Below are positions 62,044 through 64,000 of a DNA stretch of 64,000 nucleotides, piece after piece. Both the position numbers and the translations under genes were made by a program. The stretch's first letter is position 1; each line of letters starts with the position of its first letter. Location: contig CAWJKV010000003.1 of assembly GCA_963843555.1 (NCBI GenBank), positions 96,001 to 160,000 of the forward strand, given 5' to 3'. Source of the DNA: an uncultured Methanosarcinales archaeon. GTDB taxonomy: Archaea; Halobacteriota; Methanosarcinia; Methanotrichales; Methanotrichaceae. Below the pieces are notes generated by a model that was not told the origin of the DNA, made no database searches, and saw only the letters and a program-made list of their open reading frames with translations.

Positions 62044-63000
62044 ATGGCGAAGCTTGATAGAAGGCTGGATCTGAAAAGACCCGTTACCGTCTGGCGCTCG
62101 CAGGACCTGGTTGAGGGCCGGGAGGCATCTTCCCTCACCATGATCCTGCGCACAGTGGGCTGCCGGTGGAACCGCTGCACCATGTGCGGCTATGCCAGCG
62201 AAGGGGCGCCGGCCTCGGCCGATGACCTGGTAGCTCAGTTTGAGAACGCCATGCAGAGGAGCTCCCCTGAGGTCACAGTTGTCAAGATCTACACCAGCGG
62301 CAGCTTTTTGGACCCGCAGGAGATGCCCGCGGCAGCCAGGGACGAAATCCTGCAGCGCCTGGAGGCCCTGGGCATAAAGAAGCTGGTTATTGAAACCCGG
62401 CCGCAGTATGTCACCCGGGAGAGCGCGGAAAAGTGCCTCTCTCATCTCCCCACCGAGTTTGCCATGGGTCTCGAGACCTCCAACGACCTCATTCGGGAGC
62501 ACGTCATCCGCAAGGGTTTCACCTTCCAGGACTTTGTGAACGCCGCAGAGGCCGTGCATAGTCTTGGAGGGCGGGTCAAAGCCTACCTGCTGCTGAAGCC
62601 GCCTCTGCTCTCCGAGGGCCAGGCCATGAGAGATGCCATATCCTCGGCCCGGGCGGCGCATAATCACGCGGACGTTCTCTCCCTCAATCTCTGCAATGTG
62701 CAACGCAATACCCAGGTCGAGCGCATGTGGGAGCGGGGCGAGTTTCGGCCCCCCTGGCTCTGGTCGGCCCTGGAGGTATTGAAGAGCATCCCGGGACCGA
62801 TAGTTTGCGACCCGGTGGGCGCAGGAACCAGGCGCGGCCCGCATAACTGCGGCCAGTGTGATGAAGCCGTGGCCGAAGCCATCCGGGTGCATGCTCTTGC
62901 CCAGGACGTCGGTCCTTTCGATAAGCTGGACTGCGAGTGCAGAGCAACCTGGCGGGAATTGATGGAGGTGGAGGAGCACTCCTTCGGCACTCCTTTTTAA
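62044..63000 (+). CDS. Archaeosine biosynthesis radical SAM protein RaSEA
   Basis: ILRTVGC.W..CTMCGY, KIYTSGSFLD, ETRPQY, YLLLKPP, RPPWLWS, RGPHNCG.CD. Confidence 0.88.
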   Translation: MAKLDRRLDLKRPVTVWRSQDLVEGREASSLTMILRTVGCRWNRCTMCGYASEGAPASADDLVAQFENAMQRSSPEVTVVKIYTSGSFLDPQEMPAAARDEILQRLEALGIKKLVIETRPQYVTRESAEKCLSHLPTEFAMGLETSNDLIREHVIRKGFTFQDFVNAAEAVHSLGGRVKAYLLLKPPLLSEGQAMRDAISSARAAHNHADVLSLNLCNVQRNTQVERMWERGEFRPPWLWSALEVLKSIPGPIVCDPVGAGTRRGPHNCGQCDEAVAEAIRVHALAQDVGPFDKLDCECRATWRELMEVEEHSFGTPF

Positions 63001-63203
63001 GACGAATCTATTACTATAATGCTTGTATCTATTATATCATTTGTATCTTTATATGCTTTTTTTCATTAAACTTAATGATCCAAATATTGCCATTTGGGTG
63101 ATTTAGGAATTTAACCATGAGCTATTTGGTCTAATCCAGGATTATTAGGCATTAATTGGAAACCAAAAGCATTTAATATTGGTAGAGCATCCGGATAGCA
63201 AAA

Positions 63204-63365
63204 CTCTCCCGAGACGAGAGAGCTTACAGATATAGGACAAAAGAAGGAGGTGGTCGTATGGTTTCGACATTCGGGGACGCCGTTCGGAATTGGGATATAC
63301 GGAAGCGTCCAGCCGTACGACCAATGCCATGAGCCCAGGAGTCGGCTTCTGGTCAGCAAAGACCA
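63204..63365 (+). promoter_or_regulatory. Structured 5' leader with uORF upstream of the DUF1646 gene
   Basis: 13-bp stem tggtcgtatggtt (63251-63263)/agccgtacgacca (63311-63323), inner ggacgc/gcgtcc stem, flanking small hairpins. Confidence 0.6.
63258..63332 (+). CDS. Putative 24-aa leader peptide MVSTFGDAVRNWDIRKRPAVRPMP
   Basis: Strong SD aaggaggt directly upstream of ATG 63258; TGA at 63330. Confidence 0.45.
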   Translation: MVSTFGDAVRNWDIRKRPAVRPMP

Positions 63366-63406
63366 TCAAAAAATTGAAGGTTTTGTAGATATTGGAGGGA
63401 ATATTC

Positions 63407-64000
63407 ATGCAAATTGACCCTGTAGACATTGGCTTATTTGCCATTGTGCTAATTGTACTTGTCGGACCATTCATGTCTAAGAAGATAGAACATAACCTTG
63501 AAGTTTTTCTGTTTATTATGGGTGTGCTAGCAGTAACCATATCAAGCTTCTACAGCGAAGAAGCTCTGGCGGCCCTGGGCTACACAGCAGAGCAGATGGA
63601 GCTCGTCGGCTGGAATAGGGAAATAGTGATGGAAGCCATTAAAGAGCCGATATACAAGGGAATCGTTCCCATGGTGCTGCTGGCCGGTGTATTATTCCAT
63701 TACGGGCGGTCCCGTGCCCAAATGGCCATGAATTCGATCATCAAAAAAGTCCCTCTCAAGATTGTAGTGTTCCTGTTGGTCTTCATCTTGGGATTGTCTT
63801 CAAGCTTAATAACTGCCATCATTGCCTCTCTCCTATTGGTTGAGCTCATGAACTGCATGCCCTTTGAGAGGAAGACTAAAATAAATTTGATCATAATCGC
63901 CTGTTTCTCCATAGGTCTGGGCGCAGTTCTGACTCCTGTGGGCGAGCCGCTTTCTACTATCGCTATCACCAAGCTGCAGGGAGAGCCTTACTATGCAACA
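63407..64000 (+). CDS. DUF1646 family putative cation transporter, truncated by window end
   Basis: SD ggaggga; MQIDPVDIGLFAIVLIVLVGPF.SKKIEHNLEVFLFIMG...SSLITAIIA...IGLGAVLTPVGEPLSTI. Confidence 0.88.
   Translation, partial: MQIDPVDIGLFAIVLIVLVGPFMSKKIEHNLEVFLFIMGVLAVTISSFYSEEALAALGYTAEQMELVGWNREIVMEAIKEPIYKGIVPMVLLAGVLFHYGRSRAQMAMNSIIKKVPLKIVVFLLVFILGLSSSLITAIIASLLLVELMNCMPFERKTKINLIIIACFSIGLGAVLTPVGEPLSTIAITKLQGEPYYAT

Follow-up and report, generated by a model that had tools for sequence, protein, structure and literature searches.

A leader that holds a strong Shine-Dalgarno (SD) sequence, a short open reading frame and several putative hairpins upstream of an archaeal DUF1646 gene raises the question of whether it senses ions, is operated by ribosomes or owes its appearance to the history of the gene. 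The locus lies at the end of the window, by which we mean the whole stretch of 64,000 nucleotides that was analysed, from an uncultured Methanosarcinales archaeon. In the accounts cited here, bacterial DUF1646 genes are a main target of the Na+-I riboswitch (PMC9337991, PMC5737381), and the original prediction for this locus was an ion-responsive riboswitch or a leader-peptide attenuator. What stands of it is a conserved, structured, RNA-like element and a preserved start of the upstream open reading frame (uORF); an Rfam match, a conserved peptide, a terminator and a predicted coupling to the SD of the main gene were all missing. We favour, with somewhat more confidence than doubt, a composite leader in which the uORF is a retired start site and not a sensor, and in which control is exerted mainly by the promoter and a 5'-terminal hairpin.

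The DUF1646 gene and its leader

The genome contains mcrA, and the host is consequently a methanogenic archaeon. The features of the leader and of the gene that it precedes are collected in Table 1. PF07854 is the sole Pfam family matched by the gene, with an E-value of 9.8e-50 for the part within the window and of 2.9e-116 for the whole protein. Because neither an NCBIfam model nor a solved structural relative was matched by this protein, its role as a cation transporter is presumed from the bacterial literature. Genes of DUF1646 are present in 52 of the 59 genomes of the genus and were divided by their N-terminus into types A (32 of 87 near-full genes), B (37, including that of the window), C (12) and D (6).

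Table 1. Coordinates of the leader elements and of the DUF1646 gene in the window.
Feature	Position	Strand	Remarks
20-nt promoter motif CCAAAAGCATTTAATATTGG, BRE/TATA-like, with TTTAATAT at 63172-63179	63163..63182	+	
5' hairpin of the module, CUCUC..GAGAG	63204..63222	+	predicted at the extreme 5' end of the mRNA
GAUAUAGGA, window copy of the conserved unpaired motif GAUGUAGGA	63229..63237	+	identity 0.91 in 26 A-type genes
Extended SD of the uORF, AAGGAGGUGGUC	63243..63255	+	read from the sequence
13-bp stem, 5' arm	63251..63263	+	overlaps the SD end and the uORF AUG
24-codon uORF, MVSTFGDAVRNWDIRKRPAVRPMP	63258..63332	+	ATG 63258, TGA 63330-63332
uORF codons 1-9	to 63284	+	homologous to 5' coding sequence of A-type DUF1646 genes; remainder unconserved as peptide
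13-bp stem, 3' arm	63311..63323	+	inside block GCCGUACGACC, aligned with GCAGUACGGUAA of other B-type leaders
Hairpin P4, GCCA/UGGU around GAGCC/GGCUU	63326..63353	+	weak to moderate support
SD of the DUF1646 gene, GGAGGG	63394..63399	+	predicted unpaired probability 0.92
B-type DUF1646 gene	63407..64000	+	396 aa as whole protein; extends beyond the window end; Pfam PF07854

The uORF, its stem and the B-type leader

The strong SD, the 24-codon uORF and the gap of 74 nt between its stop and the DUF1646 start codon at 63407 on the plus strand are all present as originally predicted. The core of the SD (AAGGAGG, 63243-63249) belongs to a longer sequence that presumably fits the 3' end of the 16S rRNA, and GAGGUGGUC is near-invariant upstream of A-type genes. 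A search with the leader DNA gave matches in 26 of 36 other sampled genomes of the genus and in none of 24 genomes from other families. At 14 of 20 related loci the same ATG (ATGGTT..., behind the same SD) opens a long DUF1646 reading frame (MVSILGEVVTPIDIGLF...), and a short one of 14-54 codons begins there at just six, the window included. Aligned without gaps from the ATG, the window and the A-type gene of genome G026 are identical at 20 of 27 bases; a metagenome variant (L109) matches G026 at 35 of 41 bases including the SD, and then at 2 of 21 after column 41. Since the gapless alignment diverges from this point, the homology of the uORF to A-type coding sequence ends, as judged by sequence comparison, at about 63284 in codon 9. 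The first nine codons are thus homologous to the true N-terminal coding sequence of sister genes, which explains the strong SD without a sensing role. As the first ~120 bases of the leader share ancestry with a module that serves as the direct start of DUF1646 genes at other loci, the uORF is most likely a retired start.

A second explanation makes the translation of the uORF itself the regulator: ribosomes at the strong SD would unfold the 13-bp stem together with the hairpins downstream of it, after which they would either move on to the main start (forms of 53-54 codons) or alter the folding or stability of the mRNA (the 24-codon form). We consider such a ribosome-operated leader rather unlikely. 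For the clade of the window, a metagenome scan added 21 loci, of which 20 have the same arrangement, and together with seven genomes these gave 17 distinct leaders. The SD and the start of the uORF are kept in all 17 (16 ATG and one GTG, in which both the start codon and its base pair are preserved), as expected if ribosomes act there; beyond the clade, this ATG is the start codon of the real gene. The uORF has 24 codons in ten leaders, 53-54 in six and 14 in one, and the six long forms stop 11 nt inside the main gene, which is a geometry of coupling. Further points in favour are that the stop codon of the window's uORF falls within hairpin P4 and that an SD-like AUGG block occurs at the corresponding position of other B-type leaders. 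Against these stands the coding content. The suggested conservation of the WDIRK peptide failed to appear in the 17 clade leaders, in which neither the peptide nor the uORF length is conserved, peptides beyond about codon 9 are unrelated, single-nucleotide indels switch the frames, and the regulatory codons of an attenuator were likewise not found. The window's own uORF, moreover, ends well short of the main start, and the frame overlapping the main start, with 35 stop codons, is no poorer in stops than another frame with 40, the expectation being 76 per frame.

Two further interpretations of the leader as coding sequence were tried and rejected. A long frame, which reaches 8 nt into the main gene, stays open over at least 43 codons in 26 of 36 B-type leaders and forms a reading frame of 116-125 codons in some genomes. 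It was rejected as a gene because 3-nt periodicity was not found in the leader substitutions, because it is broken in close relatives (23 codons or fewer in 10 of the 36 leaders) and because a second frame is equally depleted of stops. A spliced intervening sequence, the removal of which would join uORF codon 14 (..WDI) to ..DIGLF of the main gene and mimic an A-type N-terminus, was rejected because the junctions lack bulge-helix-bulge complementarity on inspection and the 'DI' is lost in relatives.

The uORF start was originally placed in a 13-bp stem enclosing a second stem, GGACGC/GCGTCC. Both are present in the window, and the 86 nt of 63245-63330 have a folding energy of -36.2 kcal/mol (z -3.84; none of 200 shuffles did as well), compared with z -1.36 for its opposite strand. 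The claim is restricted, however, by the relatives. The 13-bp stem is kept within one clade only, in the leaders of which 89.2% of its cells are paired; just one pair changes on both sides (two cells), and the same pair is unpaired in five cells. Covariation of this stem in the clade leaders was not significant, the score of the whole structure being reached by 37 of 500 shuffles, and ensemble folding from the predicted transcript start to the main gene gave the stem as the dominant pairing of the AUG in just 7 of 16 clade leaders, which also counts against operation by ribosomes. The inner stem, paired in 51% of cells in the clade, is specific to the window. Within the seven genomes of the clade, identity is 0.85 in the 5' arm, 0.78 in the 3' arm, 0.61 in the interior and 0.835 in AAAGCCAUGAG, at a neutral level of 0.55. 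Conserved arms around a near-neutral interior are the signature of a selected helix; they favour a ribosome-operated leader to this extent, and the uORF domain may be more than a by-product.

Ribosomes that opened the stem would be expected to change the access to the main gene, and the predictions speak against this. When the uORF region was held single-stranded, the predicted unpaired probability of the main SD was alike in 16 of 16 leaders (in the window 0.92 when free to fold and 0.89 when opened), and no ribosome-decided folds that hide the main ribosome binding site or form a terminator were predicted. By these predictions, neither the main SD nor the main start depends for its accessibility on the state of the uORF region.

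The remainder of the leader was compared among 36 B-type leaders, 30 of which are in the tool-made alignment. Their common blocks are GCAGUACGGUAAAGGACC (the window reads GCCGUACGACCAAUGCC), hairpin P4, an AGCAAAG... sequence and the SD region. P4 is paired in 75.8% of cells on the 30 leaders, compared with 70.7 +/- 1.1% in shuffles, with a covariation score of 0.149 against 0.115 (reached by 13 of 500); an alternative pairing in its region, CCAGGAG/CUUCUGG, is seen in the window only. The originally proposed hairpin at 63350-63365 gained no support, as the stretch 63335-63370 folds no better than chance (z -1.17, 24 of 200 shuffles), and the whole leader, 63190-63420, has a z of -1.88 (6 of 200). 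Against a neutral identity of 0.53 at 4-fold sites, the 30 genes have identities of 0.41 in the variable part of the leader and 0.56-0.61 in the shared blocks, and the 21 nt from the SD to the start, at 0.89, are the sole part clearly above neutral. By these identities, the B-type leader is near the neutral rate across the genus save for its SD-start region.

Several side observations concern this part of the leader. The positions 63373-63408 hold an imperfect 18-nt tandem repeat (ATTGAAGGTTTTGTAGAT and ATTGGAGGGAATATTCAT), the second copy of which contains the main SD and start, and one subgroup of leaders is longer than another by an 18-nt insertion at that site; the repeat suggests that the present SD/start region grew by local duplication. 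Only one RNA run, a soil metatranscriptome, contained related contigs, from ~90% relatives, and two different ones start exactly at 63344, inside P4. Such contigs are unable to show RNA ends or starts, and the shared position could be an RNA processing site or an assembly break at a variable loop. Another form of B-type leader has, just upstream of its promoter, a block of ~150-190 nt (GGTAGGCTGGCTATGGACAATGTACTGCC...) that is more conserved than the leader itself and occurs in 10 genomes (L065 at ~1380-1560 on the minus strand, with equivalents in L050, L053, L054, L069, L073, L030, L056, L061 and L064). None of its frames lacks stops throughout the 10 genomes, and third positions are not enriched among its changes. 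The Rfam scan included three of these loci and gave no match. The block is absent from the window.

In the protein tree rooted on the C-type, six genes with the window's leader group together, with another leader type as their sister (support 94/80). The seventh such gene branches within a set of genes that have a different leader (100/98), and from this separate position it follows, as far as the tree is right, that the arrangement arose twice or was moved by recombination, a requirement that counts against the retired start. None of the seven genomes with the arrangement holds a second copy of the module under the covariance model described below. The arrangement could have originated when a B-type gene captured the 5' end of a paralogue by recombination, or when an ancestral start was retired by the insertion of a new SD and start.

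The 5' module shared with other DUF1646 genes

The part of the leader that is shared with other paralogues spans 63163-63284 and consists of the promoter motif, the 5' hairpin, the long SD, the AUG and nine codons. The stretch from promoter to ATG recurs before 35 distinct genes, of which 26 A-type, seven B-type and one C-type are in the alignment; the remaining one, also C-type, lacks the ATG pattern. A covariance model of the module (R1) matched 40 of the 59 genomes of the genus at a DUF1646 locus, once each save for one genome with two matches on separate contigs. Of 69 genomes sampled from the family, 39 were matched, and these belong to several genera. Among 71 genomes outside the family it gave two weak matches (E 0.035 and 0.079). 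All of 11 tested matches from other genera directly precede a Pfam DUF1646 reading frame; the one tested match from another family precedes a DJ-1/PfpI gene. The promoter motif CCAAAAGCATTTAATATTGG has exactly one copy per genome in each of five genomes searched, every time at a DUF1646 locus; at three mismatches the same genomes gave only two further hits, and the reversed control gave none. A regulon search with the motif and R1 found no copies before other genes.

Identities within the module (26 A-type genes) are 0.95 for the promoter, 0.83 for the hairpin arms, 0.45 for the loop, 0.91 for GGATGTAGGA and 0.91 from the SD to the ATG, where the neutral level at 4-fold sites of the adjacent genes is 0.54. 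The hairpin at 63204-63222, which was part of the original prediction, folds at -6.8 kcal/mol (z -2.26, 5 of 200 shuffles), and it has gained in standing by belonging to a family-wide module with covariation that was seen only before DUF1646 genes. Its stem reads CUCUCC/GGAGAG, GCUUUCC/GGAAAGC, GCUUU/AAAGC or AGACU/AGUCU according to genus and keeps its position, the loop varies in length and sequence between genera, and the equivalents of GAUGUAGGA in other genera are UGUAGGA or UGUAGAA. On 57 distinct sequences, 86.4% of the cells of the module helices are paired, against 81.8 +/- 0.7% in shuffles and 35-54% in slid controls; changes on both sides of a pair occur in 30 cells (11.7 in shuffles), and covariation scores 0.204, where shuffles give 0.135 and none of 500 reaches the observed value. 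The alignment of the 57 sequences was fitted to the model and so favours the structure in this pair count, although a count based on MAFFT points the same way. RNAalifold yielded no consensus structure from MAFFT alignments, either of the module or of the full set of B-type leaders, since loops of unequal length shift the arms, and the structure analysis was done with subgroup folds, counts of named pairs and the covariance model. A K-turn was considered for the module and rejected on inspection, as the strand facing the internal loop has just one base and tandem G.A pairs are missing.

Side observations were made at the hairpin and downstream of other modules. On the minus strand, the hairpin is followed by TTTTGC and scored as terminator-like, and this site might stop antisense transcription into a radical SAM gene that ends at 63000. 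In one genome (G005:C1:1217229-1231117), six DUF1646 matches lie on one strand within 14 kb; the array is headed by a gene with the window's type of leader, and two of the matches sit in reading frames of ~579 aa with long N-terminal extensions. In another genome (G030:C31:78113-79142, locus L003), an A-type gene that follows an intact module has an in-frame TGA and TAG and resembles a pseudogene.

Archaeal promoters have a usual distance between TATA box and start, and by this distance transcription is predicted to begin at about 63200-63203, directly before the 5' hairpin. The pairing of an outer helix (CAUCC/GGAUG) is likewise supported, yet transcription from the predicted start would begin downstream of its 5' arm. 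This conflict counts against the preferred explanation, and one of the two, the predicted start or the helix, is wrong. The outer arm finds a place in a third explanation, in which a transcription factor binds the DNA at the 20-nt motif and at the inverted repeat CATCC...GGATG that surrounds the start, and selection on the hairpin acts on a palindrome or spacer in the DNA and not on an RNA. Such an operator would also suit the single copy of the motif per genome and its identity of 0.95, a combination uncommon for a plain promoter. We nevertheless regard it as distinctly unlikely: the loop is neutral, and the distance between the half-sites ranges from ~26 to more than 45 nt and the inner stem changes its sequence and keeps its complementarity, which fits pairing in RNA better.

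A fourth explanation is an RNA that binds Na+, Li+, K+ or Mg2+ and tunes expression as a non-homologous analogue of the Na+-I riboswitch, with the sensing part either in the 5' module (two helices, an internal loop and GAUGUAGGA) or in the domain of the 13-bp stem and P4. The bacterial precedent, the strict association of the module with DUF1646 genes, its covarying helices and its highly conserved unpaired nucleotides all speak for it. The constant genomic context and the pairs kept through sequence change are, more generally, those of a cis-regulatory RNA in a 5' UTR. According to the descriptions cited, the Na+-I riboswitch consists of two hairpins with conserved bases at the foot of P1 and in the loop of P2 (PMC9337991) and acts through a competing terminator as expression platform, and the examples given there are from bacterial phyla only (PMC9337991, PMC5737381). 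The leader shares with it the placement before Na+-related genes, namely DUF1646. Its Rfam comparison, proposed with the original prediction, was negative: the leader matched no family, the Na+ riboswitch included, when 62900-63600 was scanned with cmscan at E up to 10, where just two chance matches appeared on the minus strand (62931-63070), and 16 related loci (38,277 bases) gave no match at E up to 5. The loop conservation of Na+-I was sought in the module, but the hairpin loop is its least conserved part and varies freely. No expression platform was found either: the plus strand holds no terminator-like site in 62950-63500 and no T5 run between 63064 and 63503, and the predictions leave the main SD exposed however the upstream part folds. 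The near-neutral rate of the B-type leader and the predicted start, with which the outer helix would lose its 5' arm, add to these objections, and an ion-responsive riboswitch in the window appears very unlikely to us. We attach the least credence to a wider form of this idea, that the family-wide module (terminal hairpin and GAUGUAGGA, before every paralogue type of DUF1646) is an archaeal cation-responsive RNA, a non-homologous counterpart of Na+-I, whose output in the window's clade is relayed through the masked uORF.

The composite leader with a retired start thus remains our preferred explanation, and it would work as follows. Transcription would begin immediately before the 5' hairpin, from an unusual promoter that may be recognised by a dedicated regulator, and the hairpin with the adjacent GAUGUAGGA may affect the stability of the mRNA or bind a factor. 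In the window's clade, the 13-bp stem, made of the old SD/AUG and of B-type leader, would damp initiation at the retired start, and translation of the transporter-like gene would rely on the gene's own exposed SD and not on the uORF. The module is a new candidate element, specific to the family and absent from Rfam; it probably controls transcription, mRNA stability or the binding of a factor.

Comparison with known systems

If the preferred explanation is right, the window contains the promoter, leader and first codons of one paralogue, followed by the leader and start that belong to another, and it is a cautionary case of how the history of a gene can yield a convincing picture of a riboswitch with a uORF. 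What it would add is a compact, covarying 5' element with an unusually fixed promoter motif, specific to DUF1646 across a family of methanogens. A dedicated archaeal control element of this kind would be a handle on the signal, be it salt, pH or another cation, to which DUF1646 genes answer. Were the module a true cation-responsive RNA, it would have evolved for the same gene family as the bacterial Na+-I riboswitch.

The module and the Na+-I riboswitch are alike in being small two-helix elements in the 5' leader of DUF1646 genes and in their taxon-wide conservation. They differ in that the module is archaeal, matches no Rfam family, has its conserved nucleotides outside the loop and has no terminator platform, and that binding of a ligand is a candidate property in its case. 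Bacterial mRNAs are also known to be stabilised by 5'-terminal stem-loops of the ompA type. The module resembles these in having a hairpin within a few bases of the transcript start, which in the module is a predicted one, and in its conserved stem and free loop; it differs in that the conserved unpaired GAUGUAGGA follows the hairpin and that the decay machinery of archaea is another.

The uORF leaders of bacterial cation transporter genes of the mgtA/mgtL type conserve the codon content of their peptide and the alternative hairpins that feed a terminator or Rho. The window shares with them a short, SD-led uORF in the structured leader of a gene of the cation-transport type, whereas its peptide, length and frame vary and no coupled platform is predicted. 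Small ORFs in 5' UTRs are known from another methanogen, Methanosarcina mazei, where they make up ~10% of the 314 unannotated small ORFs in the Ribo-seq data as described (PMC11456600). Unlike these, for which that description gives no established function, the uORF of the window can be traced to the coding start of a paralogue.
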